Made by a program: the position numbers and the translations under genes. A DNA stretch of 32,000 nt from the NCBI RefSeq assembly GCF_000012805.1, contig NC_007484.1, positions 630,001-662,000 of the forward strand, given 5' to 3'. Under the pieces are notes generated by a model. The model was given only the letters and a program-made list of their open reading frames with translations. It ran no database searches and was not told where the DNA came from. Below, piece by piece: positions 1 through 25,680 of this stretch; the stretch's first letter is position 1, and the number at the start of each line of letters is the position of its first letter. The DNA is from Nitrosococcus oceani ATCC 19707 (GTDB lineage Bacteria > Pseudomonadota > Gammaproteobacteria > Nitrosococcales > Nitrosococcaceae).

Positions 1-242
1 TCATCCCAGCTCTTGCTGCGCAAAACCCTGTCCTCGGGCAGGCTCAACCGGCTGATCTGTTCCAGCGCCAAAGGGTTTACCTTGCCTGTTGGGCAACTGC
101 CCGCACTGAACCCCTCAAACAACGGCGCGCCCACCGTATTGAAGATGGCCTCGGCCATAATGGAGCGCGCGGAATTACCGGTGCAGAGTACTAGAACTCG
201 CAGGCGCGATGTGGTTGCAGCGTGTTGGGTCGTGCTATTCAT
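1..242 (-). CDS. arsC: arsenate reductase, LMW-phosphatase (thioredoxin-coupled) type; only the N-terminal part is in the window
   Basis: Hand translation of the minus strand from ATG at 242: [80 protein letters not shown]... CTGNSARS is the CX5R P-loop of LMW-PTP-type ArsC. It starts 8 nt after the arsM stop. It is absent from the ORF track because it is open at the window edge. Confidence 0.75.
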
Positions 243-250
243 GGATTTTG

Positions 251-1291
251 CTAACAGCATGGGATTGCCTCTGTCGTTCCTGCCACAGTGTCGAATGGCA
301 TCACTGAACCACAGCCTTCGAACAGACCAAAATGTCGTTTGAAATCGCCGATAAACTGAAAATGCCCAGCAAATCGTGTCTCGTGCAGCATGCGCCAGGT
401 GTTGCCGCACACTGGAAATACCCGACCTGCCGCAATGGCGTGATGCTTATCCAATACGAATTGGTGTGGGCTGTGGGGAATCGTGCCCTGATAAATAACC
501 GCCTGGCCGTAATCCTCACAGGCGCTTTCCAGCCCATCTAGTTTGAATAAACGGTAAGTTGCCGAGAAAAACTGCAGATTGCCGGTTTGTTGAGCCAGAT
601 TCCTGTCAGTCACCTCAAGGGATCGATCCTCGACCAGCCGTGGATCGGCAAAACCCGCGGCATTGGCCAGACGCAGAAAGTCGTTCCAGTACAAGGCGCC
701 ACCCAGACATTCACCATACAATACCGAATTGTTGCGCACGGCATCCGGCACACGGCGGTCGGAGTAGACATCCGAGAAATAGAGTTCACCGCCGGGTTTC
801 AGAAGGCGGTGCACGCCATCCAATACCGCCGCTTTATCCGGTGACAGGTTTACCACGCAGTTGGAGACAATGACATCAAAGGAGCCGGGTTCCAGGTCCA
901 GTTCATCGAGTTTTTCAATATACCCTTTGATAAAGCTCACGTTATCAAAACCGAAGGATTCGGTATGCCAACCCTGATGGGATTGAGCCACCGCCAGTTG
1001 TTCATCAGTCATATCCACGCCGACAACTTTGCCCTCAGGACCAACCAGCTGTGCCAGGGCATACACATCGCGACCCGACCCACAGCCCAGATCCAGCACT
1101 CGGCATCCTTTCAATAAGGGTGGACAAATCAGCCCGCAGCCATAGTAGCGAAATTGAATCTCCGGATGAATCCGCGCCAGTAGAGGCTTCAGCCAATCAG
1201 GCATAGCGCTGGCATCGCAGCAAGCAGTGGTTTTGAGATCGGCGGAACTTTGCAGCTGCTTACCGTAATAATCTTGAACGACGTCGTGCAT
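251..1291 (-). CDS. arsM: arsenite S-adenosylmethionine methyltransferase (ArsM family)
   Basis: Track ORF 251..1306. It has the SAM-binding motif [11 protein letters not shown], an N-terminal Cys pair (TTACCD), YYGCG, and later conserved Cys ([14 protein letters not shown]) typical of ArsM. I place the start at ATG 1291 (MHDVV...) with GGAG 9 nt upstream, because the 1306 start is a TTG. Confidence 0.8.
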
Positions 1292-1306
1292 GATAAAAAA
1301 CTCCAA

Positions 1307-1678
1307 TCAGGATGACTTGACTTTTGGAACCCGTTTAGATTTGCCTATTGCAGATACGCTTTGCCTCCAGGCGAATTGCCGAATCCGCTTAAAATCCAGA
1401 TGATCTCCCTCGTCCTTCCCCTAATAGGCTGCCTGAATAATGCCATTTCTATCTACCAGAAAATTCGCTGGCATGGTGTTCATGTATCCACCAGTAGTGA
1501 TGGGCAAATACCCCTTGCCAAACACAGCATAGAGCAGTGACGGCAAGCGAGGCAACATACCTTTTAGCAGGCCACATCAGGAGTGACGAATGGCATAGCA
1601 TCCGTGAATAATCCCCCCTTCATCAGCCAAAATCGGAAAATGAGCATCATGACGCTGAGCGTAGCGCTGTAATTCAGC
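1307..1678 (-). pseudogene. remnant of a thioredoxin-fold peroxiredoxin-like (AhpC/TSA, PRX-like2 type) gene, lacking its N-terminus and interrupted by two in-frame stops
   Basis: Hand translation: AELQRYAQRHDAHFPILADEGGIIHGCYAIRHS*CGLLKGMLPRLPSLLYAVFGKGYLPITTGGYMNTMPANFLVDRNGIIQAAY*GKDEGDHLDFKRIRQF... The FPILAD..., PANFLVDRNGII and GKDEGDH blocks match the C-terminal half of redoxin-family proteins. The catalytic-Cys N-terminal half is absent, and TGA and TAG stops lie inside. Confidence 0.5.
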
Positions 1679-2323
1679 TCAGCTAATGGCTGTGAAACGT
1701 GGCGCCCAGTTTTCAGGCAAATACTGCAAATCCTGTGGTTCGTCGATGTCATGCAAAGGTGCCAGTTGCTTGAACGTCCAACATTCCGCCAGCATTCGCT
1801 GCCGCGTCAGCCGTGCGACGGCGGTGGAACTCCAGGGCATGTCGCTGAATACCTCGGGAAGGTGCCGATTCAAGCCCAGCAGGGCATAACCACCATCACT
1901 TACTGGTACCATACAGGCATCGTGGCGCTCCAGCGCTTGCGCTGCTTCACGCAGCTTTTTTGCATTCAGGCTGGGGCAATCAGTGCCGATCAAAATAATT
2001 GCTTGCCCGTTATTGGTAATTCGGCGTGTCGCCCTAGCCAGGCGTTCGCCTAAATCTCCTTCGCCCTGTTCGGACCATTCGAGTGAAACGGGTAGCGTTA
2101 ATTCCTTCCAGATCGAATGCAGACGAGTCGGTGACACGCACAGCTCTACTGGTCCGGTATCTGCCAATACCGCCTGTTTGACCGCATGTTCCAGCAGCTT
2201 AACGGCAAGGTGTGCTGAGCCTTCTGCTCCAAGGGCAGGAATCAACCGAGTCTTGGCTAGTCCGGGTAAAGGTGCCTTGGCAAAAATGACTATGCGAATA
2301 GCTCTTTGGGGCATTGTATTCAT
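1679..2323 (-). CDS. DUF2064-type glycosyltransferase-like protein (TIGR04282-like, the rSAM/selenodomain-associated or arsenosugar cluster transferase 1)
   Basis: 214-aa ORF. N-terminus RIVIFAKAPLPGLAKTRLIPALGAEGSA is the DUF2064 signature (AKAP.PG..KTRL). It starts 4 nt after the upstream GT2 gene stop. Confidence 0.7.
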   Translation of the reverse strand: MNTMPQRAIRIVIFAKAPLPGLAKTRLIPALGAEGSAHLAVKLLEHAVKQAVLADTGPVELCVSPTRLHSIWKELTLPVSLEWSEQGEGDLGERLARATRRITNNGQAIILIGTDCPSLNAKKLREAAQALERHDACMVPVSDGGYALLGLNRHLPEVFSDMPWSSTAVARLTRQRMLAECWTFKQLAPLHDIDEPQDLQYLPENWAPRFTAIS

Positions 2324-2327
2324 GGTT

Positions 2328-3077
2328 TCATTGTTTCACCGATTGCTCATAGCGTTTGACTAGCTGTTCAGGCGGCACACCTCGCCAATAGGCCCAGCGT
2401 AGCCGCCACATCAGCCCGATCGTGCGCCAGATTCCTCGTTGTAGCCACCGACGCCCGGATGTAACGACTTTTGCTGAAAGACAGGCAGGGCGTTCAATGC
2501 ACAGCAATCGCTTGGATAGTTCAATGTCTTCCATGAGAGGTTGCTCTGGATAACCCTGTATGTGTTCGAACAAGGTTCTTTCCACAAAAATAGCTTGATC
2601 ACCGGTTGCTATGCCCGTTAACCGGGAACGCCCATTCATAAAAAAGGCCACCATGTTGAGCATCGCCGTATCGCCACTGATGTGGACATCAAAGCGTCCC
2701 CAGCGGCGCTTGTAAATAGCTCGGGAAATGCGCTCCAACCCATCTTTGGGTAAGCGAGTATCCGCATGCAAAAATACCAGAACCGAGCCGTTGGCCTGTG
2801 TCGCACCGGCATTCATTTGCACGGCGCGCCCACGGGCGGAGCGAATAACTTTGAAACCAATGCTTTCAGCCACTTTGGCGGAGCCATCCTGGCTGCCACC
2901 ATCGACCAGTAGCACTTCGCAACCCTGTCGCTGCCAGTACTGTAAATGCGCCAGCAGATCCGGCAGCAACTCAATTTCATTCAACATCGGCACGATGATG
3001 CTGAACGCCGATCGTGAGTGCCACCGCCCCTGGTCAGCGCTTTTGGTTGAGTTGCCAGTCATAATCAAGAAACTCAA
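2328..3077 (-). CDS. family-2 glycosyltransferase (TIGR04283-like, cluster transferase 2)
   Basis: 249-aa ORF. FSIIVPMLNE...VLLVDGGSQDGS...VFLHADTRLP is a GT-A/GT2 fold with a DxD-like motif. The start is ambiguous: TTG 3077 with GGAG 6 nt upstream, or ATG 3062. Confidence 0.7.
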   Translation of the reverse strand: MSFLIMTGNSTKSADQGRWHSRSAFSIIVPMLNEIELLPDLLAHLQYWQRQGCEVLLVDGGSQDGSAKVAESIGFKVIRSARGRAVQMNAGATQANGSVLVFLHADTRLPKDGLERISRAIYKRRWGRFDVHISGDTAMLNMVAFFMNGRSRLTGIATGDQAIFVERTLFEHIQGYPEQPLMEDIELSKRLLCIERPACLSAKVVTSGRRWLQRGIWRTIGLMWRLRWAYWRGVPPEQLVKRYEQSVKQ

Positions 3078-3099
3078 TGTCCACTCCGGCTTCGGTCGC

Positions 3100-3309
3100 T
3101 CAGAAACAAGTTGCTCTGTTCATCAAGCTGCTCACGATCCCGGGCCCTCCCTTTTGATAGTCTACGACCGTGGCAGCCCCACCGTTGACCGGTGATACAT
3201 GCGCCATGAGCAAGTTATTCCAGGTGTTGTGATTGAAACTCTCAGCCCAGGCGGTCTGAAGCGTCAGAATGCTTAGTAGCAGGCCCATCAGCAGGTGATG
3301 TTTTTGCAT
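3100..3309 (-). pseudogene. 69-codon stub resembling the signal peptide plus first conserved block of DUF547 proteins; probably a truncated gene
   Basis: ATG 3309 preceded by GGAGAAGAGG. Translation: MQKHHLLMGLLLSILTLQTAWAESFNHNTWNNLLMAHVSPVNGGAATVVDYQ... (signal peptide, then the F.H..W..LL..HV....VDY pattern), stopping after 69 codons. The core DUF547 domain is missing, and only 22 nt remain before the next gene. Confidence 0.35.
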
Positions 3310-5458
3310 TACCTCTTCTCCATTGGTGATATTTCTCAAGCCAGATAAGAACCCGCTCTGGCGCATGAGCACGTTTCCACTCGCCGGCGGCATATTTGTT
3401 GGCTTCCGCCCAGGTGGGATAGGCGTGGATGGTGCCGAGAATTTTGCTCAGACCAAGCCCATGCTTCATCGCTAGCACGAATTCCGCCATCAGGTCGCCA
3501 CCATGCTTACCGACGATGGTGACACCGAGGATACGGTCCTTGCCGGGTTCGGTGAGTACCTTGACGAATCCATGAGCGGCTCCGTCGGTGATAGCCCGAT
3601 CCAGATCCTCCAGTCCGTAGCGGGTTACCTCAAAAGCAATGCCTTTTTTCTTGGCCTCCTGTTCGTTAAGGCCTACCTGAGCCACTTCAGGATCAATAAA
3701 GGTCGTCCAAGGTATGATGCGATAATCAACCTTGAACCTTTTGAATTGGCTGAACAGGGCGTTGACGGCGGCATACCAGGCTTGGTGAGCGGCAGTATGG
3801 GTGAACTGGTAGGGGCCTGCTACATCGCCGGCGGCGTAAATATTCGGATACAGCGTCTCCAGATAGTCGTTGGTCACGATGGTGCGGTTAGTTTCGATGC
3901 CTAGCTCTTCAAGGCCATACCCCTGCAATCTGGCCACACGGCCCACCGCGCAGAGGAGGGTATCGAATTCAATGATCTTTTCTACGCCTTCGTATTCCAT
4001 AATCAGGCGTTTTGTACCACCTTGCTTTTCACAGCGGAGTGCTTTGTGGTTGGTAAGCACGGCGACACCATCACCTTGCAGCGATGCCTTGGCGAATTCA
4101 GAGACCTCCTCATCCTCACGGATCAGGATACGCGGGGCCATTTCCACCTGAGTTACTTGAGAGCCCAGGCGGGTAAAACTCTGTGCCAGTTCGCATCCAA
4201 TCGGACCACCACCCAACACAACAAGGCGCTTTGGCGCTTCATCCAGTTTGGCAAACTCATCCCATAGGGTATCGCTGGTGACATAGCCCACCTCTTTAAT
4301 ACCGGGTAGAGGGGGAATAAAGGGGCGTGCGCCGGTGGCTAGGACGATGGAACGACTGGTTAATTGTTGCACGGAACCATCATTGCGCTTGATTTCCACA
4401 GTCCAGGGATCGACCAACCTGGCATAACCCTGAATGATCTCCACCCCCAACCCTTCGTACCGCTCGATACTGTCGTGGGGCTCAACCTGACGAATCACCT
4501 CATGGACGCGGGCCATTACTTTGCGGAAGGAAAAATGGGGGGAGGTGGCTTCCAATCCGTAGTGGTCGGCCTGGCGCATCTGGTGTGCCAGCTTGGCGCT
4601 TTTGATCAGTGCCTTACTGGGAACACAGCCATAATTCAAACAGTCACCGCCCATTTTGTGGGCTTCGATCAGTGTGACTTTAGCCTTCACCGCCGCTGCG
4701 ATATAGGCGGTGACCAGGCCGCCAGCACCGGCGCCAATTACGATCAGATTACGATCAAAGTGACTGGGTTTTTGATAGCCTGCATACACACGGCGTGCCT
4801 TAATGACCGCCAGTAGTTTTTTGGCCAGCAGGGGAAAAACACCCAATAATGCAAACGACAGTAGCAGGGACGGCGACAAGATGCCTGATAGGCTGTCCAG
4901 TTGGGCTAACTGCGTGCCAGCATTCACGTAGACCAGCGTGCCAGCCAACATGCCGACCTGACTGACCCAAAAGAAAGTAAGCGCCCGAATGGGAGTGAGC
5001 CCCATCAAGAGATTGATGAGAAAAAACGGAAATACCGGAACCAGGCGCAGGGTGAACAGGTAGAAAGCACCATCCTTTTTGATGCCTTCATTAATGGGTT
5101 TCAGGCGATCACCAAAACGTTTTTGGACGGTGTCATGGAGCAGATACCGGGATATCAAAAAGGCGAGAGTAGCACCGACCGTGCTGGCAAAGGACACAAT
5201 GATCGTTCCCCACAGCAGTCCAAACAAGGCCCCAGCAGCCAATGTCATCACTGCGGCGCCTGGCAGGGAGAGCGCGGTCACCAGCACATACAGCAGTAAA
5301 AAGGCCCCGCCAATCACCATGGGTTGGTCCGTACGCCATGCTTCGAATTGTGCCAGTCCCTGCTTTAGGCCTTCCAGTGTCAGTAGGCGGTCGAGATCGA
5401 AAAAGAAAAAGCCAACGACCAGCGCTGTTATGACCATCAATAAGTATGCTTTCTTCAT
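3242..5458 (-). CDS. fusion protein: N-terminal DedA/TVP38/TMEM64 membrane domain plus C-terminal FAD-dependent class-I pyridine-nucleotide-disulfide oxidoreductase (mercuric/glutathione-reductase-like)
   Basis: 738-aa ORF. Roughly the first 225 aa are multi-span hydrophobic with the SNARE-associated/DedA pattern (...FLISRYL...FTLRLVPVFPF...). Then comes the FAD dinucleotide motif VIGAGAGG, the redox-active pair GGDCLNYGCVPSK (CxxxxC), a second Rossmann motif VVLGGGPIGCE, and an HAYPT dimerisation-domain motif. There is no MerA-type C-terminal CC pair. Confidence 0.8.
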   Translation of the reverse strand: MKKAYLLMVITALVVGFFFFDLDRLLTLEGLKQGLAQFEAWRTDQPMVIGGAFLLLYVLVTALSLPGAAVMTLAAGALFGLLWGTIIVSFASTVGATLAFLISRYLLHDTVQKRFGDRLKPINEGIKKDGAFYLFTLRLVPVFPFFLINLLMGLTPIRALTFFWVSQVGMLAGTLVYVNAGTQLAQLDSLSGILSPSLLLSFALLGVFPLLAKKLLAVIKARRVYAGYQKPSHFDRNLIVIGAGAGGLVTAYIAAAVKAKVTLIEAHKMGGDCLNYGCVPSKALIKSAKLAHQMRQADHYGLEATSPHFSFRKVMARVHEVIRQVEPHDSIERYEGLGVEIIQGYARLVDPWTVEIKRNDGSVQQLTSRSIVLATGARPFIPPLPGIKEVGYVTSDTLWDEFAKLDEAPKRLVVLGGGPIGCELAQSFTRLGSQVTQVEMAPRILIREDEEVSEFAKASLQGDGVAVLTNHKALRCEKQGGTKRLIMEYEGVEKIIEFDTLLCAVGRVARLQGYGLEELGIETNRTIVTNDYLETLYPNIYAAGDVAGPYQFTHTAAHQAWYAAVNALFSQFKRFKVDYRIIPWTTFIDPEVAQVGLNEQEAKKKGIAFEVTRYGLEDLDRAITDGAAHGFVKVLTEPGKDRILGVTIVGKHGGDLMAEFVLAMKHGLGLSKILGTIHAYPTWAEANKYAAGEWKRAHAPERVLIWLEKYHQWRRGNAKTSPADGPATKHSDASDRLG

Positions 5459-5511
5459 TATGGGTATGCTCTGTCGTTGAAATATTTCGTCACAACTAGC
5501 CTTTCAGGTTG

Positions 5512-6465
5512 TTAAAAGGAACCACCACAACTGCTCCCCTGACCAGCGGTGCAGCCATAGCAATGGTCCGCTATACGGATGGGGTAATCGTTCAAGCTCT
5601 CTTCCAGGAGATCCCGTAAGTGCTTGCGTTTTACGCCTCCTAATGGCAGTGCCAATTGTTGATTGAAATCGCAGTCGTATAAGTAGCCCTGCCAATCCAC
5701 GCTCACCAGGGATCGGCACATTACCTGTTCAAGGTTATTTGGCTGGTAGCTGTCTTTCAGCAACTGCATGTAGCCCTGAAATTTTCCTTTGGAAATCAGG
5801 GTAGAACCAAAACGCTTAATGGGCATATTAGCCAACGCATACAATTGGTTGAACTCAATACCAAAGTGCTGGCGCAGCTCGCGTTTGTAATCGGCTTCCA
5901 ATGATTGCTGGTCGGGTGGCAAGGTCGGCCCCTGCGGGTTGTAAACTAGGTTTAGCGCCAGATCGCTGCCTGGCTGTCCGTATCCTAGAGTATTGAGCTT
6001 TTGCAATCCGGCAATGCTTTTATCAAAGACACCTTTACCGCGTTGTTTGTCAACATTTTCCAGGGAGTAGCAGGGCAGTGACGCTACAACCTCCACTTGA
6101 TACTTTGCCAGAAACTCGGCCAAGTTTTCCTGCCCGGGCTCAAACAGAATTGTCAGATTGCACCGGTCAATTACATGTACGCCAGTAGCGCGGGCCTTGG
6201 ATACCAGGTAACGAAAGTCGCTGTGCAGTTCTGGCGCTCCACCGGTCAGATCCAAGGTCTTGATGGGGCGCGATTTAAGTACCGGAAAGATCAATTCTAG
6301 GGTGTCCCGGTCCATCATCTCCTTGCGATTTGGACCCGCGTTGACATGGCAATGCAGGCAGCTTTGGTTGCATTTGTAGCCAAGATTGACTTGCAGGGTC
6401 TCCAGACTTTTTCGCCGAATAGGGGGAAAGTCAGTGACTTCCAAAAGGGGTAAGGTTGCATGCAT
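5512..6465 (-). CDS. arsS: radical SAM / Cys-rich-domain protein of the arsenosugar biosynthesis ArsS family (TIGR04167-like)
   Basis: Track ORF 5512..6543. It has the CX3CX2C motif (KCNQSCLHC) and the C-terminal Cys-rich tail HCYGCTAGQGSSCGG. I prefer ATG 6465 (MHATLPLL...) with GGAG 7 nt upstream over the longer form. Confidence 0.75.
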   Translation of the reverse strand: MHATLPLLEVTDFPPIRRKSLETLQVNLGYKCNQSCLHCHVNAGPNRKEMMDRDTLELIFPVLKSRPIKTLDLTGGAPELHSDFRYLVSKARATGVHVIDRCNLTILFEPGQENLAEFLAKYQVEVVASLPCYSLENVDKQRGKGVFDKSIAGLQKLNTLGYGQPGSDLALNLVYNPQGPTLPPDQQSLEADYKRELRQHFGIEFNQLYALANMPIKRFGSTLISKGKFQGYMQLLKDSYQPNNLEQVMCRSLVSVDWQGYLYDCDFNQQLALPLGGVKRKHLRDLLEESLNDYPIRIADHCYGCTAGQGSSCGGSF

Positions 6466-6548
6466 CGTGATCTCCAGAGTCCGGTTGCATATTTCAGAAT
6501 TTGAACCTTGGTCGTGCCAAATCGTTGATTTCTTACAAGGCATCTTTA

Positions 6549-6562
6549 ATACTAGCTAGTAT
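6549..6562. promoter_or_regulatory. perfect 14-bp palindrome ATACTAGCTAGTAT upstream of arsS; candidate operator
   Basis: Read directly from the sequence. It lies 84-97 nt upstream of the preferred arsS start and abuts a TTGTCA -35-like hexamer on the minus strand. Confidence 0.3.
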
Positions 6563-7379
6563 GACAACCGCCATAGTTGTTTTTTTAATAGGATACTTCA
6601 ACCATGGTGTTATATCCGGTCTTAGCAGCTCCACATCGGTCTATCTATTGTCATCATGACTGGAGCTGGATTATGCGTGTAAGAATCCGCCGCCCCGATG
6701 CGACCAAGGTGTTATTAATGGCTGTTTGTGGGGCTGCCTTGATGAAAACCTGTCACCTGGGAAATAGGCTGTTCGACATCCTGGACAAGTCAAGGAGAAT
6801 TGACTTTCTCGGCTCCCTTGGCGCTACGCATTTATGATGACGCTGCCCGCCGAGTTGGTCGAATTCATGGATGGAGTGGCGTTGGTGCTTGGATTGGATT
6901 TACGCCTGATGGCCATCCCAATGAAGCTCACAATGGCCGTCGGCACCGCTTCACCGGCACCGAGCTACAGTAGCATGGATGACTGGATTGCTCGAAAATT
7001 TCGGACTAGCCCGGCAGCTTCGGGTCAGTGGCATTAGCTAAAAAACAACAGAGGAAACGTTGGAATTAAACATGGATGTTTAATGCCTTCCAGCGAGAGT
7101 GCGAAATGAAGTCGCGCATCGACCCGCCTGCGCCAAGGGCGGTGCGGCAGGCAGGGCGGGAGGACCAGGTTACTTGCGTTTTGCCATGAATTAGCGCTAT
7201 GATTTTCTCGTTGCCACAAGCGCGACCTATCCTCGGGAGGAGGAGAAGTGATGCGCGTGGAGGGTGATACCCAACCGAGGGCCTTGCGCGCTAAGTCGTG
7301 GCCAGCCCGAGGTACCCGTTGAAGCGCGAATTCTCCAGGCGGATGAGGTTTTGTAATAGGAACAAAATCGACATCAGTC

Positions 7380-7560
7380 ATGGCGAAACTCCAATCACTC
7401 GCCGGACACCGCTCCGGAAGCAGCAAAGGCTTGCCTGACGGACGCAAAAAAGCAATTGGGATTCGTTCCTCATCTCTATTTCGTCCCTTGCAATGGTGGC
7501 CGACTACGATCGCTGGTATCCACGAGAAGTCCATGTCACTACGGATCTAGCAATCGCTAA
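7380..7560 (+). pseudogene. N-terminal fragment of a carboxymuconolactone-decarboxylase/AhpD-like (CMD family) gene, frameshifted and truncated
   Basis: ATG 7380 gives MAKLQSLAGH... The +1 frame then reads ...PDTAPEAAKACLTDAKKQLGFVPHLYFV..., matching the CMD-family N-terminal pattern (..AP..A..L....K.LGFVPN.....). No intact continuation exists in any frame. Confidence 0.35.
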
Positions 7561-7748
7561 CCTGGTGAGATAGGCTATTTCTCTTGCGCTAATCCTCAGT
7601 ACTGAACATATAAGCAAAAGGGTAAATATATAATTGAGGCGGATTTACACAGAAACCTTCATTAATCTCCTTAGGTATCCGGGGATTTTAGAATTCAGCA
7701 AAGTATATAATAGCCGACTCTTTTTTATTCAAGCCTTTGCTGTAAGCG

Positions 7749-8954
7749 CTATTTCAGTTCCACCTTGATCCAGCCGGATTTGCGCTGGTCGAAGTTTTGG
7801 TAGGCATCGATTACCGCCGTGAGCGGCTCCTGCTGGGTGAGCACCGCAGCGGGATTGACCACCCCGGTGTGCACCAAGTTGACCAGCATGGGAATATATT
7901 TACGGTGATTGCAATTGCCCATCTTGAGGGTAAGGTTCTTGTTCATCGCCTGACCGATGGGAAAAAAGCGATCATTAGGTGGGTAGACTCCGATAATCGA
8001 TAGGGTGCCCGCTTTAGCCAAGCTTTCAACCGCCCAACGCAAGGCCTGGGAGGGAGCATCTCCAGGATGCCAGTGGCCGCCTTGGGGATGGTTCTCGGGA
8101 GCAATTTCCTTGAGTTCCTGCTCAAATTGCGCCTGTTGCGCATCCGTTTGCTTGGCAGCCGGCCCATGGTGCGGGCGCTCAGCATCCACGCCTACAGCGT
8201 CGATGGCGCGATCCACGCCGATGCCGCCGGTCAAATCCCTGATGGTTGCCACCGGATCCTCGGCGTTGAAGTCGATGATTTCCGCGCCTTGGGTTCGAGC
8301 CATTTCGAGACGGGAAGGCACAGAGTCCACGGCGAGTATTCGTCCGGCGCCCAGTAGCTGCGCGCTGGTAATAACAAACTGTCCTACCGGACCGCAGCCA
8401 AATACAGCCACAGTGTCGCCGGCTTTAATCTCGGCCAATTCAGCGCCAAAATAAGCCGTGGGGAAGATATCGGAAACCAGGATGGCCTCATCGTCGCTGA
8501 CTTCATCGGGCAGTTTTACCAAACCGGCATTGGCAAAAGGAATCCGCGCCTTCTCCGCCTGCAGGCCATGGAAGGGGCCGGAGGCTTTCGGCCCGCCGAA
8601 GAAAGCGGTGCCGGCTAATAAGCCTTGCGGGTTGGCATTGTCGCACTGGGCATGATAGCCCGCACGGCAGTAGGCGCAATAGCCGCAAGCAATGGTGGAG
8701 GGTACAACTACACGATCGCCTTCTTTAAGATTGCGTACACCCTTACCGAGGGCTTCCACCACCCCGACAGCTTCGTGCCCGAGAATAGTGCCGTTTTCCA
8801 TGCCGCCCATGGTGCCGCGCACCATGTGCAGATCGGTGCCACAGATAGCGCTGGCAGTAACCCGTATTACCGCATCGGTCGGGTCTTTGATCTGCGGCTC
8901 CGGTACTTCATCGAGGCGAATATCACCAATCCCGTGAAAAACAACCGCTTTCAT
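7749..8954 (-). CDS. zinc-dependent alcohol dehydrogenase family protein (long form, glutathione-independent formaldehyde-dehydrogenase-like)
   Basis: 401-aa ORF. It has the catalytic-Zn motif ICGTDLH...GHE, structural-Zn cysteines (CGYCAYCRAGYHAQC) and the Rossmann motif VFGCGPVG. AAGGAGG sits upstream of the ATG. Confidence 0.85.
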   Translation of the reverse strand: MKAVVFHGIGDIRLDEVPEPQIKDPTDAVIRVTASAICGTDLHMVRGTMGGMENGTILGHEAVGVVEALGKGVRNLKEGDRVVVPSTIACGYCAYCRAGYHAQCDNANPQGLLAGTAFFGGPKASGPFHGLQAEKARIPFANAGLVKLPDEVSDDEAILVSDIFPTAYFGAELAEIKAGDTVAVFGCGPVGQFVITSAQLLGAGRILAVDSVPSRLEMARTQGAEIIDFNAEDPVATIRDLTGGIGVDRAIDAVGVDAERPHHGPAAKQTDAQQAQFEQELKEIAPENHPQGGHWHPGDAPSQALRWAVESLAKAGTLSIIGVYPPNDRFFPIGQAMNKNLTLKMGNCNHRKYIPMLVNLVHTGVVNPAAVLTQQEPLTAVIDAYQNFDQRKSGWIKVELK

Positions 8955-9341: not shown

Positions 9342-10199
9342 ATGTCTTATTCTACGATCATTAGTCCCGCTGAGCTTGTCGAGGCTCTCGGTCATCCTAA
9401 CTGGGTTATTTTTGACTGTCGTTTTAATCTTATGGATTCATCAGCTGGCTGGTACGCCTATCAAAAAGGCCATATCCCGGGGGCATATTATGTCCACCTG
9501 GAGGAGGATTTGTCATCTCCGGTAACTCCCGGCAGCGGGCGTCATCCTCTCCCCAAGCCGGAGCAGTTGGCAGATAAATTGGGCGGCTGGGGCGTGGACT
9601 CGACGACCCAGGTTGTCGTTTACGATGATGCTTCGGGTGCCTTTGCGGCACGTTTATGGTGGTTGCTGCGCTGGTTGGGTCATAAAGCTGTAGCTGTTTT
9701 AGATGGGGGAGAGCAACGCTGGCGGGAGGAAGGCTATCCGCTGAATAGGGCAACGCCTGAGCCAGCGCCGGCTTGTTTCGAGGCTCGGCTCCAACCCTCC
9801 ATGACGACTACCGTGGAAGATGTAGAGCATGCCTCGTTGCTTGGATATCTTCTCTTGGATGGACGGGCGCCAGAACGTTTCCGGGGTGACTTTGAGCCTG
9901 TCGATAGGGTTGCTGGCCATATCCCGGGGGCAAAGAACCACCCTTTCCAGCAAAATCTGAATAAGCAGGGAAGATTTCTGCCTTCCCAAGAGCTAGCAGG
10001 CGCTTTCCGAAAGCAGATGGGGGAGGTGCCATCTGCGCAAGTGGTGTGCATGTGCGGGTCCGGTGTCACTGCCTGCCACAATTTGCTGGCCATGGAAATT
10101 GCGGGATTTCAGGGGGCACGGTTATATCCTGGGTCCTGGAGCCAATGGATCACTGATGGAACCCGGCCTGTGGCAATGGGGGATGAAACTCATGATTAA
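9342..10199 (+). CDS. sseA: tandem-rhodanese sulfurtransferase (3-mercaptopyruvate sulfurtransferase type)
   Basis: Track ORF 9288..10199. It has two rhodanese domains and the active-site loop CMCGSGVTAC (CGSGVT is the MST-type loop). The 9288 start is a TTG, so I prefer ATG 9342 (MSYSTIISPAEL...). Confidence 0.7.
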   Translation: MSYSTIISPAELVEALGHPNWVIFDCRFNLMDSSAGWYAYQKGHIPGAYYVHLEEDLSSPVTPGSGRHPLPKPEQLADKLGGWGVDSTTQVVVYDDASGAFAARLWWLLRWLGHKAVAVLDGGEQRWREEGYPLNRATPEPAPACFEARLQPSMTTTVEDVEHASLLGYLLLDGRAPERFRGDFEPVDRVAGHIPGAKNHPFQQNLNKQGRFLPSQELAGAFRKQMGEVPSAQVVCMCGSGVTACHNLLAMEIAGFQGARLYPGSWSQWITDGTRPVAMGDETHD

Positions 10200-10251
10200 A
10201 CGTAAACTCATGGAGCTTGCTGTCCTTCAAGGAAAGCAGGCAAAAAACAGC

Positions 10252-10938
10252 TCAGCTTTGCTGGTAAGCCAAAGGTAGAAGGGTTAGTCTAGCGCCGAGA
10301 AAGGTATAGGCAGCTCCGGTATCGATGAAATACACATTACCCACGATTTTAAGGGTGCCACCTTTGATGACGGTATGCCCACAGTAGACTCGCTCGATAC
10401 CCTCAACCGGGGTAGTACACTTGCCGGTAGCGCGACTGCGGCTCCAAAGCGCGTATTTATGGATAGCGGGATTACCCCGCTCAATCTCGGCGACGAATCG
10501 TGTCCAATTGAGATTGGCGGGAACGTCGGCGTGGACGATTCCAACCTTGCCCTGGTCAGTTTCAATTTCCATGGCAAAGGGAAGCTGCTTGAAGCGTTCC
10601 GAAAAAAGATTTCGAGTCGTTAGATCTAGGTCCAGCCACCATTCTCCGCCGTTCACCAGTATCCACCAAGCCGCATCAAACTCAAGGTTTTGGGCGTTAA
10701 TAACAAACTCGTCATGGTTTCCTCGGCAGGAGTGGAACCAGGGGTATTCGAGCCAAGTGAGTGCGTCAGGGGATTCGGGGCCCCGGTCTACCAAATCGCC
10801 AACGGCGAATAACCGATCCTGGCTGGGGTCAAAACCCACGCGTTCTAGCGCTTGCGCCAATAGACTATAGGTGCCGTGTATATCGCCAACCACGTAGTCC
10901 TTGCCAGCCAGATTTTTAGAAAAGCGTTTGAATCGCAC
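10252..10938 (-). CDS. metallophosphoesterase, PP-lambda/PrpA-PrpB-like Ser/Thr protein phosphatase
   Basis: 228-aa ORF with the motifs GDIHG, GDLVDRG and GNHD. It has a GTG start and no obvious SD. Confidence 0.75.
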   Translation of the reverse strand: MRFKRFSKNLAGKDYVVGDIHGTYSLLAQALERVGFDPSQDRLFAVGDLVDRGPESPDALTWLEYPWFHSCRGNHDEFVINAQNLEFDAAWWILVNGGEWWLDLDLTTRNLFSERFKQLPFAMEIETDQGKVGIVHADVPANLNWTRFVAEIERGNPAIHKYALWSRSRATGKCTTPVEGIERVYCGHTVIKGGTLKIVGNVYFIDTGAAYTFLGARLTLLPLAYQQS

Positions 10939-11056
10939 TGTATTGATATTTCAGAATATTTTGAGGTTAGCAATAAGCCACTCGGCATACCTTCAATAGG
11001 GTTTTCCTCCCCAATAAATGTATAGACTATTTTGCTGAGCGAAATCCTGTCTAAAC

Positions 11057-11076
11057 CCTCGCCCAATCGGGCGAGG
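11057..11076 (-). terminator. 8-bp GC-rich stem-loop (CCTCGCCC-AATC-GGGCGAGG) just downstream of the CDF gene; possible terminator or attenuator
   Basis: Read directly. It lies 6 nt after the CDF stop on the minus strand. The trailing sequence GTTTAGACAGGATTT is only weakly U-rich. Confidence 0.35.
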
Positions 11077-11081
11077 AGCGA

Positions 11082-11978
11082 TCATGAGCTAGGCGTTTTG
11101 TCCACGCAGCGCTGGGTTTCAATTTGGATAGTGGAGTGTTCAATCCCAAATTGTTGGCGAAGACATTCCTTGATAGCCATCAAAGTCTGATCATAGTTGC
11201 CGCCTTGGCAGATGCTTGCATGGAGTGTGAGGAGCGGGCTCTCAGAGGTGAGTAACCAAACGTGGATATGGTGGATATCTTCTACGTCGGGGACGGTTTC
11301 TATCAATTTGCTGCGTAACTCCTCTACATTTAACCATTCTGGACTACCTTCCAGCAGGATATGGGCTGATTTCTTCATCAGTACCCAAGCGCTGCGGAGA
11401 ATGAGCAAGGCGACGAATAATGACAATAAGGGATCGATAAAGGTCCAGCCGCTTATTAGAATCACGGCGGCGGCGGTTAGGGCAGCTACCGAGCCCAGTA
11501 AATCTCCCAATACGTGTAATAGGGCGCCGCGGAGATTAAGATTATGATGATCGCCACCATGGAGAATAGCAAAGGTTAGAATATTGATAACTAAGCCTGC
11601 TACCGCAACCATCAGCATGACACCAGCCAATATCTCGACGGGTTCTAGGAGCCGGGCAATAGCTTCAAGCAAGATCCAGATAACGATAAAAAACAAGGCC
11701 AGCCCATTGATCAAAGCGGCAAGTACTTGGAATCGCTGATATCCATACGAACGGCGAGCATCGGCGGGTTTACGGCTCACTCGAAAAGCAAGCCAAGCTA
11801 GCGTTAGGGCGGCGGTGTCCGCCAACATATGCCCCGCATCGGCTAGTAAAGCGAGGGAGCCAGAGAGTATTCCACCGATGGTCTCTATAATTGTAAAAAC
11901 GCCGGTGACTAGCGCAGCCCAAAAGACGCGCCTCTCGTTTCGCGAAGGCTGTTGCTTAGAAGCGGGGGTAATGGACAT
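11082..11978 (-). CDS. cation diffusion facilitator family metal (Zn/Co/Cd-type) efflux transporter
   Basis: 298-aa ORF with six TM segments, the CDF signatures LLADAGHMLAD and HVLGDLLGS, and a C-terminal cytoplasmic domain (HHIHVW). Confidence 0.85.
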   Translation of the reverse strand: MSITPASKQQPSRNERRVFWAALVTGVFTIIETIGGILSGSLALLADAGHMLADTAALTLAWLAFRVSRKPADARRSYGYQRFQVLAALINGLALFFIVIWILLEAIARLLEPVEILAGVMLMVAVAGLVINILTFAILHGGDHHNLNLRGALLHVLGDLLGSVAALTAAAVILISGWTFIDPLLSLFVALLILRSAWVLMKKSAHILLEGSPEWLNVEELRSKLIETVPDVEDIHHIHVWLLTSESPLLTLHASICQGGNYDQTLMAIKECLRQQFGIEHSTIQIETQRCVDKTPSS

Positions 11979-12220
11979 TCGGTTATTCTGCTACTGTGCT
12001 CCCGGCTCCTGTAAATTGCTTCTCTGAATCTTGCTTCAGATCTGGCCCATTAAATATTGAGTCGCCTATCCTAGATATCAATGACCTAATTGGCTTAACT
12101 AGAAGCCATATCACCCTTACATCTGGTAGAAATTAGGCGTTAGGTAGTTAGAATAAAATCCCACAGATTTTTAGTAACTTAAAAATACAACGGCGTAATT
12201 ACTAAACATTGTTGTTTGAG

Positions 12221-13027
12221 TTACTTAACCTGGAGTGTGCCGCCACGGCCTAAACCCCCTTTCACATCTTGTGCTTCGTAGTTTCTCAGGGCTTGTACCA
12301 TACCGTTGTAGGCATCCATAAAAGCAGCGACAGTTGCTTTTCCTTCCGGTGTTTTTGAAAAGCCACCCAGGCCACCTGCCGCGCTTCCTCCAAATGCACC
12401 CAAGGCCGCGCCATAATTGGTAGCGGTCGAACTCCCCTCGGAGGCTGAAATTTGTACCGCCGAGCGGATATCATATAAGGAAAGGGTTACGACCGATGCT
12501 TTTGTTTCAAGCGCGCCGGCGAGTAATCCCACCGTGCTGTTAACTAATCCGCCGAGTACCCCACCCACTTGGCCCAGGGACGAATCATCAATAATAATTT
12601 GTGGTTCCAGGTAATAATCGGCAGCTACCCGTTGTCCTTTGTGTTGTTTTGAGCCAGCACGATATTCTCCCGAGTTACGCTGTAAATTGGTGACTCGGGT
12701 TAGGCGGCTATCGGTGCGCAGATTGCCTATGGTGGTAATAACAAAACAGTTCGACTGTTGCACTGCAAGCCGGAGTAATGGCTCAATGGAGGTAACGTGG
12801 GTGGTGCTGCCAAAGCGACCATACCAATCCGCCGCTCGACCATCGTCTACCGCCAGTGTTCCTAACGGCTGCTCACATCGTTCTAAAGAGGCGTTAGCAT
12901 CTACGCTAGCGCCTCCCCCCGCAGCTCCGGATACTGCCGTGTGCTGGTCTCCGGTAGTTACACAACCCACAAGGAAAAAACTACAGCCCAAGAAAAGTAG
13001 TTTCTGTAATCTAAGAAAATTTGTCAT
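12221..13027 (-). CDS. CsgG/HfaB-family outer-membrane lipoprotein (curli-type secretion channel family)
   Basis: 268-aa ORF with a lipoprotein signal and lipobox (FFLVGC). The block order resembles CsgG: LAVDD..., ADYYLEPQII (the ADY.L.G.I pattern), a Gly-rich loop, then VVTLSLYDIRSAVQISA... The assignment is from pattern memory, not an alignment. Confidence 0.55.
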   Translation of the reverse strand: MTNFLRLQKLLFLGCSFFLVGCVTTGDQHTAVSGAAGGGASVDANASLERCEQPLGTLAVDDGRAADWYGRFGSTTHVTSIEPLLRLAVQQSNCFVITTIGNLRTDSRLTRVTNLQRNSGEYRAGSKQHKGQRVAADYYLEPQIIIDDSSLGQVGGVLGGLVNSTVGLLAGALETKASVVTLSLYDIRSAVQISASEGSSTATNYGAALGAFGGSAAGGLGGFSKTPEGKATVAAFMDAYNGMVQALRNYEAQDVKGGLGRGGTLQVK

Positions 13028-13103
13028 AATATTTTTATTCTCTAATATTTAAGTTCCGCTGATCATTGATAATGAGGCTGCCATAAATTGGCATAACTTT
13101 ATC

Positions 13104-13807: not shown

Positions 13808-14911
13808 TTATTTCTCCAACGCACGCTGATAGGCGCGCTCTGAAATAGCATCCCAGGTACTAAATTTTTCCCGAAAAGCACTGTAAGCTTCATAGACTTG
13901 CTTAAATTGGGGGTCACTAGCCGCATGTTCTGCTAGCATTTGCTGGGTAAGCTGGCGTAGCTTGGTGAGCACATCATCGGGGAAAGCTAGAATTCTGGTG
14001 TGCGTCTGTGCTTGCAGCTCCCTCAGTGCTTGTGCGTTCCTCGCTTCCATTTCCGAACTCATTCGCAAGTTTTCAGCTTGGGCGGCTGTGGAAATAATAG
14101 CTTGGAGATCTTCAGGAAGGGACTGCCAGGCTTTTTTATTGATAGTCAGTTCCAGCACCGCGCCTGGTTCATGCCAACCGGGATAATAGTAATACTGGGC
14201 GGCTCGGTTCAAGCCCAAGCGTAAATCATGGAAGGGGGCGATCCATTCGGTGGCATCGATGGTATTACGCTCCAAAGCGGTATAGACTTCCGCCCCTGCT
14301 AGGAGCACAGGATTGCCGCCAGCCTTGGCGAAAACCTTGCCACCGAGACCGGGAATACGCATTTTGAGACCTTCCAAATCTTCGGTGGATTTAATTTTCT
14401 TGTTAAACCAGCCGCCCATTTGGACCCCGGTATTGCCGAGTGGAAAGGGAATAACATGGTAGGGGGCGTAAATTTCCCGCCACAGCTTCAGTCCGCCACC
14501 CTCATAAAGCCAGGTATTCATGCCCTTGACCGTCATACCAAAGGGGACGGTGGAGAAAAATTGCGCGGCGGGAATCCGGCCAGCCCAGTAATAGGCCGAC
14601 CCATGGCCCATATGCACCGCTCCCTGGGAAACCGCTTCAAAGGTTTGCAGTGGTGGAATTAATTCCCCGCCAGCAAAGACTTTGATGTTAAGCCGTCCTC
14701 CGCTCATGGTTTTGATATTGTGGGCGAAGCGTTCTGCTCCTTCCTGGAGAACTGGAAAGCCAGGCGGCCAGGTCGTCACCATTCGCCAGCGAATGATTTG
14801 GGTTGAGGGGCCTTCGATAGTGGTATTTGGGGGTTCGGAGCGGCAGGCGCTAAGGCTGAACAATACTAAGAATAAGAGGAATGTTGAAACCCGTTTCGTC
14901 ATTCGGAGCAT
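13808..14911 (-). CDS. TRAP transporter substrate-binding protein (DctP family, COG4663-like)
   Basis: Track ORF 13808..14926 starts with TTG. ATG 14911 (MLRMTKRVSTFLLF...SAC) has GAAGG upstream. It has a signal peptide and a DctP-type body (WRMVTTWPPGFPVLQEGAERFA...). Confidence 0.75.
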   Translation of the reverse strand: MLRMTKRVSTFLLFLVLFSLSACRSEPPNTTIEGPSTQIIRWRMVTTWPPGFPVLQEGAERFAHNIKTMSGGRLNIKVFAGGELIPPLQTFEAVSQGAVHMGHGSAYYWAGRIPAAQFFSTVPFGMTVKGMNTWLYEGGGLKLWREIYAPYHVIPFPLGNTGVQMGGWFNKKIKSTEDLEGLKMRIPGLGGKVFAKAGGNPVLLAGAEVYTALERNTIDATEWIAPFHDLRLGLNRAAQYYYYPGWHEPGAVLELTINKKAWQSLPEDLQAIISTAAQAENLRMSSEMEARNAQALRELQAQTHTRILAFPDDVLTKLRQLTQQMLAEHAASDPQFKQVYEAYSAFREKFSTWDAISERAYQRALEK

Positions 14912-14990
14912 GCCTGTTACCTTCAAATTTTGAGTGCTCGATTCGCGCCAAGGCCAGAAAGTGGAAAAGCAGCCAATGGTGCTAGGGGCT

Positions 14991-17236: not shown

Positions 17237-18529
17237 CTAGGAGGATAGTTTAGCCAGCACCCGTTCTGCTGCTTGCAGGGTGGCCGCTATGTGTTCATCG
17301 TTATGGGCACTGGAGACAAAACCTGCTTCAAAGGCAGAGGGAGCAAAGTAAATGCCGTGTTCCAACATGCCATGGTAGAAGGATTTAAAACGATCTAGAT
17401 GGCAGTTGGTTGCTTGTTCGTAGCAGGTGATTTCTTCCTCTCCAGTGAAGAAGAGGCCAAACATACCTCCCACCTGATTGGCCGTCATGGGAATATCCGC
17501 ATCACGGGCTCGGCCTAGGATACCATTAACCAATTTTTGGGTTTGGCGGGATAAATGCTCGTAAAACCCAGGGGCCTGAATCAGTTTGAGAGTGGCCAAT
17601 CCAGCCGCCATGGCCACTGGGTTGCCAGAGAGGGTACCGGCTTGATAGACGGGGCCTAGGGGGGCAATCATCTCCATAATTTTTTGGCGGCCACCAAAGG
17701 CGCCCACCGGCAAGCCGCCACCCACTACCTTGCCTAGGGTGGTTAAATCCGGGGTGACATCATAAAATGCCTGACCGCCTCCCAGGGCGACCCGAAAACC
17801 GGTCATGACCTCATCAAAGATAAGGACACTGCCGTAGTCATCGCAGATAGTCCGTAATCCCTCTAAAAAACCTGGAACAGGTGGGACGCAATTCATATTC
17901 CCAGCAACAGGCTCGACAATGATGGCCGCAATTTGCTCGCCAAAATGGTTAAAAATTTCCTGGACCTCCCCCAGGTTATTGTAGCTGACGGTCAGCGTAT
18001 GTTCGGCTACCGCCAGGGGAATGCCGGGTGATGTGGGTACCCCGAGGGTCAGGGCGCCTGAGCCGGCTTTCACCAGCAGAGAGTCGGCGTGACCGTGATA
18101 GCAACCCTCAAACTTTAATATCTTGTCCCGCCCGGTAAAACCACGGGCGAGCCGGATAGCGCTCATGGTGGCTTCCGTGCCTGAGCTGACCATGCGGACC
18201 AGATCCATGCTAGGGACGAGACGGCACAGAGTTTCAGCCATTTCGATTTCAGTGGCGGTCGGAGCGCCAAAGCCCAGTCCCTGGGCTGCCGCTTCCTGGA
18301 CCGCCGCAACCACTTCCGGATGGGTATGACCGACAATCAAAGGACCCCAGGAGTTGACGTAGTCGATATAACGGTTATCGTCCACATCATAGAGATAAGC
18401 ACCCTCGCCGCGGACGAAAAACACGGGTTCGCCGCCGACGCCCTTGAAGGCACGCACGGGAGAATTGACCCCGCCGGGAATATGAGCTTGGGCCCGTCGA
18501 AATAAGTTATCTGAATGGATCTGGGTCAT
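17237..18529 (-). CDS. hemL: glutamate-1-semialdehyde 2,1-aminomutase
   Basis: 430-aa ORF, a class-III aminotransferase with typical HemL N-terminus ([17 protein letters not shown]) and a PLP-Lys region ([11 protein letters not shown]). Confidence 0.92.
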
Positions 18530-18697
18530 GAGAAAACCTCTGCTATTTGTACCACGGCGTTAGGTAAAAAATGGGTATTTTGTGCACTCGAAATGGCTAA
18601 GGGCGCTTTTTATTTTCCAGGGGCAATATATCATAATCATAAGGTGAGGCTAGACTTCTTCACCAGCCAATAAGGTGCCTGTTGCGCGGGCCCCCCG

Positions 18698-19027
18698 TTA
18701 AGGGGCAATGGATTTTGAAAAAACATTGAGTACCACTACGCCTGCTATGATGAGCGCGAGTCCAAGGAGTGCGGGTGTATCTAGAGTCTGCCCATAAAAA
18801 AGCCATGCAACCAAAGTGATTAAGGCTACGCCAACCCCTGACCAAACCGCATAAGCAACCCCCACAGGGAGGGTGCGCAGGGTAAGCGATAGAAAATAAA
18901 AGGCTGCGCCGTAGCCGAGAATAACGGCCAGTGATGGCCCGAGCCGGGTGAATCCAGCCGCAGCCTTCAGGGACGATGTGGCAATCACTTCCGCCAGGAT
19001 AGCTAGTGACAAAAAAATCCACTGCAT
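18698..19027 (-). CDS. emrE: small multidrug resistance (SMR) transporter, EmrE/Qac subtype
   Basis: 109-aa ORF with four TM segments and the essential Glu in [17 protein letters not shown] and YAVWSGVG are near-identical to E. coli EmrE blocks. Confidence 0.8.
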
Positions 19028-19042
19028 TATTAAAAGCTTTTG

Positions 19043-25675: not shown

Positions 25676-25680
25676 AAACG

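Follow-up and report, generated by a model that had tools for sequence, protein, structure and literature searches.

The window analysed here is a stretch of 32,000 nucleotides (nt) of the genome of Nitrosococcus oceani ATCC 19707, and its minus strand carries, at positions 1-6465, a gene cluster predicted to turn arsenate into organoarsenicals. Five intact, co-directional genes and a truncated sixth are present. In order of transcription these are arsS, whose product is an enzyme of the radical S-adenosylmethionine (SAM) type, a gene in which a DedA membrane domain is fused to a flavoprotein reductase, a gene for a family 2 glycosyltransferase (GT2), a gene of the TIGR04282/DUF2064 family, arsM, and arsC, of which only the 5' part lies in the window. 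A first-pass annotation of this DNA had described a complete cluster of six intact co-directional genes with short spacers. The three spacers that it gave are correct (53 nt between arsS and the fusion gene, 4 nt between the GT2 and DUF2064 genes and 8 nt between arsM and arsC), and all six of the diagnostic motifs that it quoted are present. However, it left unmentioned two long junctions, of 179 nt between the fusion and GT2 genes and of 387 nt between the DUF2064 gene and arsM, both of which enclose pseudogene remnants, and arsC is cut by the left edge of the window, with about 80 of its 177 codons inside.

The proteins of the cluster match exactly ABA57104-ABA57109 of N. oceani ATCC 19707 and their counterparts in three other N. 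oceani assemblies. RefSeq already labels these genes as belonging to arsenosugar biosynthesis, and the finding is in this respect not new: ArsS is named 'arsenosugar biosynthesis radical SAM (seleno)protein ArsS' and the two transferases 'TIGR04283 family' and 'TIGR04282 family arsenosugar biosynthesis glycosyltransferase'. The fusion is listed as a 'bifunctional TVP38/TMEM64 family protein/FAD-dependent oxidoreductase' and the arsC product as 'arsenate reductase ArsC', while the arsM product is called only a 'methyltransferase domain-containing protein', because it stays below the curated NCBIfam cut-offs for ArsM. A literature search on the N. oceani genes Noc_0585-0590 returned nothing relevant.

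The first gene, arsS (5512..6465, minus strand), encodes a radical-SAM enzyme of 317 residues with TIGR04167, Radical_SAM and DUF3641 matches. Against the NCBIfam model TIGR04167 it scores 478.5 bits (cut-off 300), covering profile positions 2-302 of 303, and its Cys-rich C-terminal DUF3641 domain scores 195 bits. The CX3CX2C radical-SAM motif, CNQSCLHC at residue 32, and the motif CYGCTAGQGSSCGG at residue 302 are both invariant in 12 homologues. In the tail a cysteine occupies the position at which some homologues carry selenocysteine; a GxxU selenocysteine motif is listed for the ArsS family (PMC13188914). Homologues fall into at least 8000 clusters at 90% identity, those of gamma- and beta-proteobacteria reaching 70-84% identity to the protein described here, which is itself 100% identical among four N. 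oceani assemblies. An alternative start at 6543 was rejected, as the resulting 343-residue open reading frame (ORF) is not on record, while the ATG at 6465 (317 residues) is on record and fits all homologues. The first-pass annotation rightly took it as established that ArsS adds a 5'-deoxyadenosyl group: dimethylarsenite, DMAs(III), reacts with the 5'-deoxyadenosyl radical to give DDMAA, short for 5'-deoxy-5'-dimethylarsinoyl-adenosine (PMC13598754; PMC8552651; bioRxiv 10.64898/2026.04.29.721666). By its equivalog score the ArsS of the window is assigned to this DMAs(III)-adenosylating family, the activity itself being known only for characterised ArsS.

The substrate of ArsS is expected to come from ArsM, the As(III) S-adenosylmethionine methyltransferase (251..1291, minus strand; 346 residues). 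Over residues 2-329 this protein matches the crystallised ArsM enzymes 5EVJ (E 8.7e-103) and CmArsM 4FR0 (E 6.3e-86), and the four cysteines that CmArsM uses in catalysis (C44, C72, C174 and C224) have aligned counterparts in its Cys24, Cys52, Cys145 and Cys195. Given the full-length match to crystallised ArsMs and the alignment of all four catalytic cysteines, its identity is not in doubt, and by homology the protein is clearly an ArsM despite failing the curated cut-offs. Judged from sequence, it is of a proteobacterial, ArsS-linked lineage, copies of which, 69-84% identical, occur in 35 of 79 related loci.

The arsC gene (1..257, minus strand) would begin either at ATG 242, 8 nt past the arsM stop, or at ATG 257, overlapping arsM, and it encodes a thioredoxin-coupled arsenate reductase of the low-molecular-weight phosphatase (LMWP) type. 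The CTGNSARS P-loop (CX5R) lies inside the window, and the 80-residue fragment matches Pfam LMWPc at 26.7 bits. The full-length protein of 177 residues can be read from locus L001 of the same genome; it matches PDB entry 8P5N and pI258 ArsC, with the cysteines of TVCDN...VCP aligned. The segment TVCDNAASEVCP aligns with TLCSDA..NNCP of 1LJU, the downstream cysteines lying outside the window. The catalytic cysteines of pI258 ArsC are C10, C82 and C89. By homology ArsC is thus a genuine member of the thioredoxin-coupled class with a pI258-type cysteine triad; for ArsM and ArsC alike the identity proposed earlier stands, on homology and catalytic cysteines.

Directly past arsC, without a gap and outside the window, the genes encode a binding protein that resembles PstS, then two permeases, then an ATP-binding cassette (ABC) ATPase (L001 16739-20110). 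The PstS-like protein scores 179.4 against a PstS-family cut-off of 206.6 and so falls below it. The putative operon extends, on this gene order, beyond the window into pstS-pstC-pstA-pstB-like transporter genes; the cluster is hence not complete within the window, and it has also lost accessory genes that its relatives possess.

The product of the TIGR04282/DUF2064 gene (1679..2323, minus strand; 214 residues) is one that we predict to be a CofC/FbiD-like nucleotidyltransferase. Its family membership is clear (TIGR04282, 202.1 bits against a cut-off of 134; Pfam DUF2064, 122.9 bits, with a match to NTP_transf_3), and it also resembles the CofC model TIGR03552 (E 1.6e-14; 54 bits, where the cut-off is 105). 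An AlphaFold (AF2) model built on 30 homologues, with a pLDDT of 95.5, gave as its top Foldseek match 3CGX, an uncharacterised member of the same family, followed by CofC 2I5E (TM 0.73), FbiD 6BWG (0.70) and 3-phosphoglycerate guanylyltransferase 7P97 (0.71). CMP-Kdo synthetases (KdsB), glucose-1-phosphate cytidylyltransferase, GlmU and IspD come further down, and the first glycosyltransferase appears at rank 39 with a TM score of 0.49. The invariant residues are K16/K24-T-R-L, D115, D192 and D194; AKTRL aligns with AKSRL of CofC and AKTRL of FbiD, and the invariant GTDCP and HDIDEPxDL of the family profile align with aDlP and tDiDepeDL of CofC. In FbiD the corresponding aspartates, D116, D188 and D190, hold the substrate phosphate via two Mg ions (PMC6450877). 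The fold, the AKTRL and three-aspartate motifs and the role of those aspartates in FbiD together indicate that TIGR04282 proteins are nucleotidyltransferases for a phosphorylated substrate, and the label 'glycosyltransferase' is not borne out by the model or the motifs. Hence, of the 'two glycosyltransferases' first proposed for the cluster, only the TIGR04283 GT2 would deserve the name.

This GT2 (2328..3062, minus strand; 244 residues), encoded 4 nt upstream of the TIGR04282 gene, scores 282.4 bits against TIGR04283 (cut-off 182) and matches Pfam Glycos_transf_2. It contains the invariant motifs VDGGSxD, FLHAD, TGDQ, MEDIE and SGRRW, and it ends in Trp/Arg-rich amphipathic helices. The AF2 model (pLDDT 90.3) shows a GT-A fold with donor-binding motifs, and its top Foldseek matches are membrane or inverting GT2 enzymes (PcManGT 6YV7, WrtF, TarS, GtrB and BcsA). 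The best of these is a membrane mannosyltransferase, the fold matches being generic. At the sequence level there are weak matches to ArnC, and these raised the prospect of an undecaprenyl-phosphate-linked intermediate. We set this aside, as the GT2 folds are generic and the DedA domain of the neighbouring fusion belongs to COG0398, distinct from COG0586, the subfamily of undecaprenyl-phosphate flippases (PMC10127716). Our literature search for the TIGR04282 and TIGR04283 family names and for an enzyme assigned after DDMAA found no assigned chemistry, in agreement with the earlier statement that none has been demonstrated for either transferase.

The fusion gene (3242..5458, minus strand; 738 residues) joins an N-terminal DedA/VTT membrane domain (about 4913-5254; COG0398) to a C-terminal pyridine nucleotide-disulfide oxidoreductase (PNDR), a class I flavoprotein disulfide reductase (about 3389-4750; COG1249). 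Pfam gives 86.3 bits for VTT_dom, 211 for Pyr_redox_2 and 101 for Pyr_redox_dim; the CLNYGC redox centre is at residue 273 and HAYPTWAE at residue 678. The protein is below all NCBIfam cut-offs, and its PDB matches include LipDH 2EQ6 and MerA 5X1Y. It was rejected as a MerA: it scores 370.1 against the 454.45 of TIGR02053, its C-terminus (...KHSDASDRLG) has no Cys pair, and no mer genes occur in the window. COG0398 is a putative phospholipid-flippase subfamily; a 2023 survey lists PNDR fusions as the commonest of its fusions and gives them no function (PMC10127716). The regular siting of such fusions beside arsS is seemingly not discussed there.

How regular this siting is can be judged from a scan, at one genome per species, that recovered 80 loci with an ArsS 70-83% identical to ours, all from gamma- and beta-proteobacteria and representing the nearest relatives. 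Gene content was counted in the 57 loci with enough flanking DNA, as genes within 10 kb of arsS. The same gene order recurs in most of the 79 related loci, and the arrangement is not a product of chance. The DedA-reductase fusion is found near arsS in 86-89% of the 57 loci, the GT2 in 81% and DUF2064 in 79%. MTA phosphorylase (MTAP; methylthioadenosine phosphorylase) follows with 53%, ArsM (69-84% identical to that of the window) with 46%, a TIGR03169 oxidoreductase with 42%, DUF3047 with 40%, DUF547 with 26%, a PiT phosphate transporter with 12% and a Pst-like binding protein with 7%. Pst or PiT genes also follow arsM in several other lineages. Minimal versions exist, consisting of arsS-arsM only in Zhongshania and of arsS and the fusion only in Halieaceae, and the transferase pair therefore appears to act as an add-on module to ArsS. 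Pairs of extracytoplasmic function (ECF) sigma and anti-sigma factors recur in about one third of the well-flanked loci. The TIGR03169 gene (for example L026 3869-5032 and L064 7057-8166) belongs to a family known for its place N-terminal to SelD, a link to selenium.

DDMAA is a 5'-substituted 5'-deoxyadenosine, like MTA. The cluster-linked MTA phosphorylase of the relatives scores 307.7 against the TIGR01694 equivalog cut-off of 274.85; examples from loci L016-L084 include L016 9084-9992 and L071 14561-15406. Among the well-flanked loci, it is no more than 10 kb away from arsS in 30 of the 45 that carry both GT2 and DUF2064 and in none of the 11 that carry neither (Fisher p 5e-5, a value not corrected for phylogeny in a set with many Polaromonas loci). 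In about 21 loci it shares the strand of arsS and lies directly upstream, 9-69 nt away. Other loci have it in divergent orientation to arsS, at a distance of several kb upstream or, in the case of Cupriavidus, downstream of DUF2064; there are at least four arrangements, and 12 named genera are represented. By our own estimate, the chance that the single MTAP gene of a genome of about 4 Mb comes to lie no more than 10 kb from a given gene is about 0.5%. That MTAP is confined to loci carrying both transferase genes favours a role in the pathway, without proving it.

Taken together, these results lead us to read window 1-6465 as the N. oceani copy of a widespread proteobacterial ArsS operon that would convert arsenate into organoarsenicals, with later steps that are proposals, and we put the probability of this reading at roughly 70%. 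Arsenate would enter the cell along with phosphate through a Pst- or PiT-type transporter, in keeping with the Pst or PiT genes with which the gene string ends. ArsC would then reduce As(V) to As(III), ArsM would methylate As(III) to DMAs(III), and ArsS would convert DMAs(III) to DDMAA. These three steps are supported by homology to characterised enzymes.

For the missing later half we offer a Leloir-type salvage route only tentatively, as one that we hold to be possible and some way short of probable. An MTA-phosphorylase-type enzyme, a paralogue of MTAP, would remove adenine from DDMAA to leave 5-deoxy-5-dimethylarsinoyl-alpha-ribose-1-phosphate, which the CofC-like TIGR04282 nucleotidyltransferase could activate to a nucleoside diphosphate (NDP)-sugar. 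The inverting TIGR04283 GT2 may then transfer the sugar onto a glycerol-type acceptor, such as the glycerol of a lipid head group, giving a beta-riboside; natural arsenosugars have this configuration. The acceptor probably lies at the membrane, for example phosphatidylglycerol, in which case the product would be an arsenosugar phospholipid; a membrane lipid is suggested because the GT2 has an amphipathic tail and the fused DedA domain belongs to COG0398. The DedA domain could redistribute, or flip, the arsenosugar lipid across the membrane. Finally, the reductase domain, and in relatives the redoxin of the cluster (dead in N. oceani), may supply thiol reducing power to ArsM, to ArsC or to the arsenicals themselves.

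Several points weigh against this reading of the operon and its route. Although the profile comparison called for by the first-pass annotation placed the TIGR04167, TIGR04283 and TIGR04282 proteins over their cut-offs, ArsM is under every NCBIfam ArsM cut-off (NF008823, 176 against 263; NF040538, 135.6 against 500; NF038099, 88.2 against 400), and full-length ArsC reaches 60.7 against the 174.3 of TIGR02691. The proteins of the locus, like the TIGR04282 and TIGR04283 members at large, have been assigned from comparison alone. Co-transcription of the cluster is only putative, with gaps of 179 and 387 nt and a lack of recognisable promoters and terminators: a scan of positions 1-7800 gave promoter and terminator counts at or below the shuffled expectation, with no sites in the minus-strand gaps, a result that by itself speaks neither for nor against co-transcription. 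Since arsM lies near arsS in only 46% of related loci, context does not tie the downstream module strictly to arsenic. The dedicated MTAP here is a relic of 33 codons, so that the route would rely on an enzyme encoded outside the window, and the MTAP association, besides its uncorrected p value, could instead reflect the clearance of inhibitory 5'-deoxyadenosine beside a radical-SAM gene. Neither the GT2 acceptor nor the reductase substrate, moreover, is constrained by our results; both are proposals.

The MTAP relic is one of several signs of loss. The full cluster that comes closest, L007, belongs to an uncultured gammaproteobacterium and is a continuous string of 13 genes that runs unbroken from arsS through the fusion, DUF547, GT2, DUF2064, a small membrane protein, a periplasmic SAM methyltransferase, DUF3047, a redoxin, arsM and arsC to pstS; on the opposite strand upstream of arsS it has a membrane protein, an AhpD-like gene and, farther off, the MTA phosphorylase. 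By blastn the window is colinear with L007 in three blocks (6478-3307 with 9851-13053, 3081-1830 with 13819-15054 and 1682-52 with 17570-19182). The 765 bp of L007 13054-13818, which hold DUF547, have no counterpart in the window, and a 2.5-kb segment containing the small membrane protein, the periplasmic SAM methyltransferase, DUF3047 and the 5' half of the redoxin gene is absent.

What remains in the gaps are fragments. A redoxin pseudogene (1352..1678, minus strand) corresponds to the C-terminal half of a thioredoxin-fold protein (of CPFC type in relatives) and has two in-frame stops, its 5' half being gone; by tblastn it is 73% identical to residues 96-204 of the 209-residue L007 protein. 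A DUF547 remnant (3100..3393, minus strand), a 97-residue ORF in overlap with the fusion gene at the latter's 3' end, retains a signal peptide and N-terminal stub and has tblastn matches to DUF547 genes in 14 loci, at a best E of 1.7e-22, the intact relatives carrying Pfam DUF547. Upstream of arsS, at 6834..7621 on the plus strand, three gene fragments follow in the order of L007, as detected by tblastn: one of a membrane protein (c47; 6834-6977), one of an AhpD-like, peroxidase-related gene (7396-7479) and one of MTA phosphorylase (7472-7570, then a stop), the last being the 33-codon relic, ISISSLAMVADYDRWYPREVHVTTDLAIANLVR*, compared with L007 MTAP. An ORF of 166 residues at 7034-7534, considered as a regulator or other gene, has no Pfam domain and spans the relic fragments; we treat it as non-coding debris. 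By comparison with L007, therefore, DUF547, DUF3047, the methyltransferase, the small membrane protein, the redoxin, the AhpD-like gene and MTA phosphorylase have been reduced to fragments or to nothing. On this evidence the N. oceani cluster is a streamlined or eroded copy, which keeps an intact core but has had at least seven accessory genes deleted or turned into pseudogenes. As the MTAP copy is only a relic, a housekeeping enzyme would be needed for the removal of adenine. Locus L004 of another N. oceani strain (GCA_000740735.1), at 7013-7451, is without arsC, pstS, pstC, pstA and the 5' part of pstB and has a 132-residue fragment of an ABC ATPase directly past arsM; gene loss at the locus is therefore continuing within the species.

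Such losses invite the view that the whole cluster is a decaying remnant, its pathway ending at methylated arsenic or at most at DDMAA, or not being expressed, and its transferase and fusion genes intact merely for lack of time to decay. The deleted or stop-bearing accessory genes, the cluster-linked MTA phosphorylase among them, are in its favour, as are the further losses in the L004 strain and the five non-synonymous against one synonymous differences of the fusion gene between N. oceani strains, counts so tiny that they are too few to interpret selection. Nevertheless, none of the five core ORFs is shortened or has lost a residue that is invariant when 30 sequences of its family are aligned, and ArsS is unchanged among the four assemblies. 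The reduced sets of Zhongshania and Halieaceae, furthermore, caution that reduction alone does not equal loss of function. We consider a decaying remnant unlikely.

Less probable still is that the arsS/TIGR04282/TIGR04283/DedA-reductase module of proteobacteria is not specific to arsenosugars and serves another soft element, for example selenium, or an unrelated membrane glycoconjugate, the adjacency of arsM and arsC being facultative. The limited co-occurrence of arsM within 10 kb would fit this, as would the 'N-terminal-to-SelD' oxidoreductase TIGR03169 in 42% of loci, the selenoproteins among the members of the families, the first naming of these families as rSAM/selenodomain-associated, and the fact that, in the literature found, ArsS activity has been shown solely for the cyanobacterial system. 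Conversely, the equivalog score of ArsS is far over its cut-off, the gene string of the window also holds arsM, arsC and a phosphate/arsenate-type transporter, the arsM lineage adjacent to arsS is highly conserved, and the Pst or PiT genes past arsM in several lineages fit the entry of arsenate with phosphate. Plain detoxification, in which ArsC and ArsM would simply methylate and volatilise arsenic and the genes from arsS to DUF2064 would form a separate, unrelated unit, has in its favour the 387-nt gap with its dead gene and an operon structure that the promoter and terminator scan could not demonstrate. Against it, relatives such as L007 keep the gene order without this gap, their genes overlapping or nearly touching, and the known substrate of ArsS is the product of ArsM; we regard plain detoxification as highly improbable.

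An arsenosugar operon, as preferred here, can be set beside several known systems. In the arsM-arsS pair of Synechocystis sp. PCC 6803, reportedly the subject of Xue et al. 2019 and Cheng et al. 2021, ArsM makes DMAs(III) and ArsS makes DDMAA; our ArsS belongs to the same equivalog, TIGR04167, and arsM lies in the same gene string. The ArsM of the window is of another lineage, however, with 88 against 400 for the cyanobacterial 'AsSugarArsM' model NF038099, and four genes plus a pseudogene stand between arsS and arsM. The proteobacterial cluster also adds the DedA-reductase fusion, the CofC-like nucleotidyltransferase, the GT2, arsC and pst, which are known here from sequence. The locus has all three families, in the usual order, of the TIGR04167/TIGR04282/TIGR04283 neighbourhood ('rSAM/selenodomain-associated transferases 1 and 2', now given arsenosugar names by NCBI); unlike many of its members, it is without MTAP, DUF547, DUF3047 and redoxin, and its ArsS has Cys where some have Sec.

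The likeness of the TIGR04282 protein to CofC/FbiD of F420 biosynthesis extends from the MobA-like fold (TM 0.70-0.73), AK(T/S)RL and the three-aspartate phosphate/Mg site to its genetic context: as CofC works with CofD/FbiA, TIGR04282 is always paired with a transferase gene, the product of which would consume its probably labile NDP-activated product. In contrast to CofC/FbiD, it is remote in sequence, its partner is a GT2 and not CofD-type, and no F420 genes are nearby. With regard to the chemistry of MTA phosphorylase and methionine salvage, DDMAA resembles MTA and the cluster genes of relatives pass the MTAP equivalog cut-off, whereas the window keeps only its relic, and DDMAA as a substrate is a proposal. 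The fusion has the domain architecture and COG assignment of the COG0398 DedA-PNDR fusions of Todor et al. 2023 (PMC10127716); unlike that account, which gave no function and no arsenic context, ours finds both halves of the fusion near arsS in 49-51 of the 57 well-flanked loci. Finally, the arsinothricin genes arsQML of Burkholderia gladioli likewise pair an ArsM with a C-As bond-forming enzyme of the radical-SAM type, in a setting of arsenic resistance (PMC8552651). Their ArsL, in contrast to our ArsS, is of another family and transfers a 3-amino-3-carboxypropyl and not a 5'-deoxyadenosyl group, and arsQML is without transferase or DedA genes.

The remainder of the window is ordinary chromosome, with genes for UvrD, inosine monophosphate (IMP) dehydrogenase, XseA, ExbBD, ThiE, a cation diffusion facilitator (CDF) transporter and others. 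Scans of the window with Rfam and for tRNA genes gave no matches. An ORF of 268 residues at 12221-13027 (minus strand) is also a gene call in public assemblies and has no Pfam domain. At 22958-28042 on the plus strand, a DUF3450 gene, two MotA/ExbB-family genes, an ExbD gene, an unscanned ORF (26088-26741) and a tetratricopeptide repeat (TPR) protein together have, by sequence, the look of an ordinary cluster for TonB-type energy transduction.

In marine food webs arsenic occurs mainly as arsenosugars and arsenolipids, and we know of no enzyme acting after DDMAA that has been identified since the pathway was first proposed. The main value of our follow-up is a testable assignment of these missing steps, together with a corrected label for TIGR04282. 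Comparison with the 79 related loci names MTAP as a candidate for the enzyme that removes adenine, and it links the hitherto unexplained DedA-reductase fusions to the arsenosugar pathway. In N. oceani, a marine ammonia oxidiser would possess a trimmed form of this pathway joined to a phosphate-type transporter, which bears on arsenate stress in the ocean under phosphate scarcity. Were the Leloir-type route to prove true, two large families, so far uncharacterised, would gain their first function, as would the DedA-reductase fusions. It would then follow that many heterotrophic and nitrifying proteobacteria, besides algae and cyanobacteria, make arsenosugar lipids when their phosphate transporters import arsenate.

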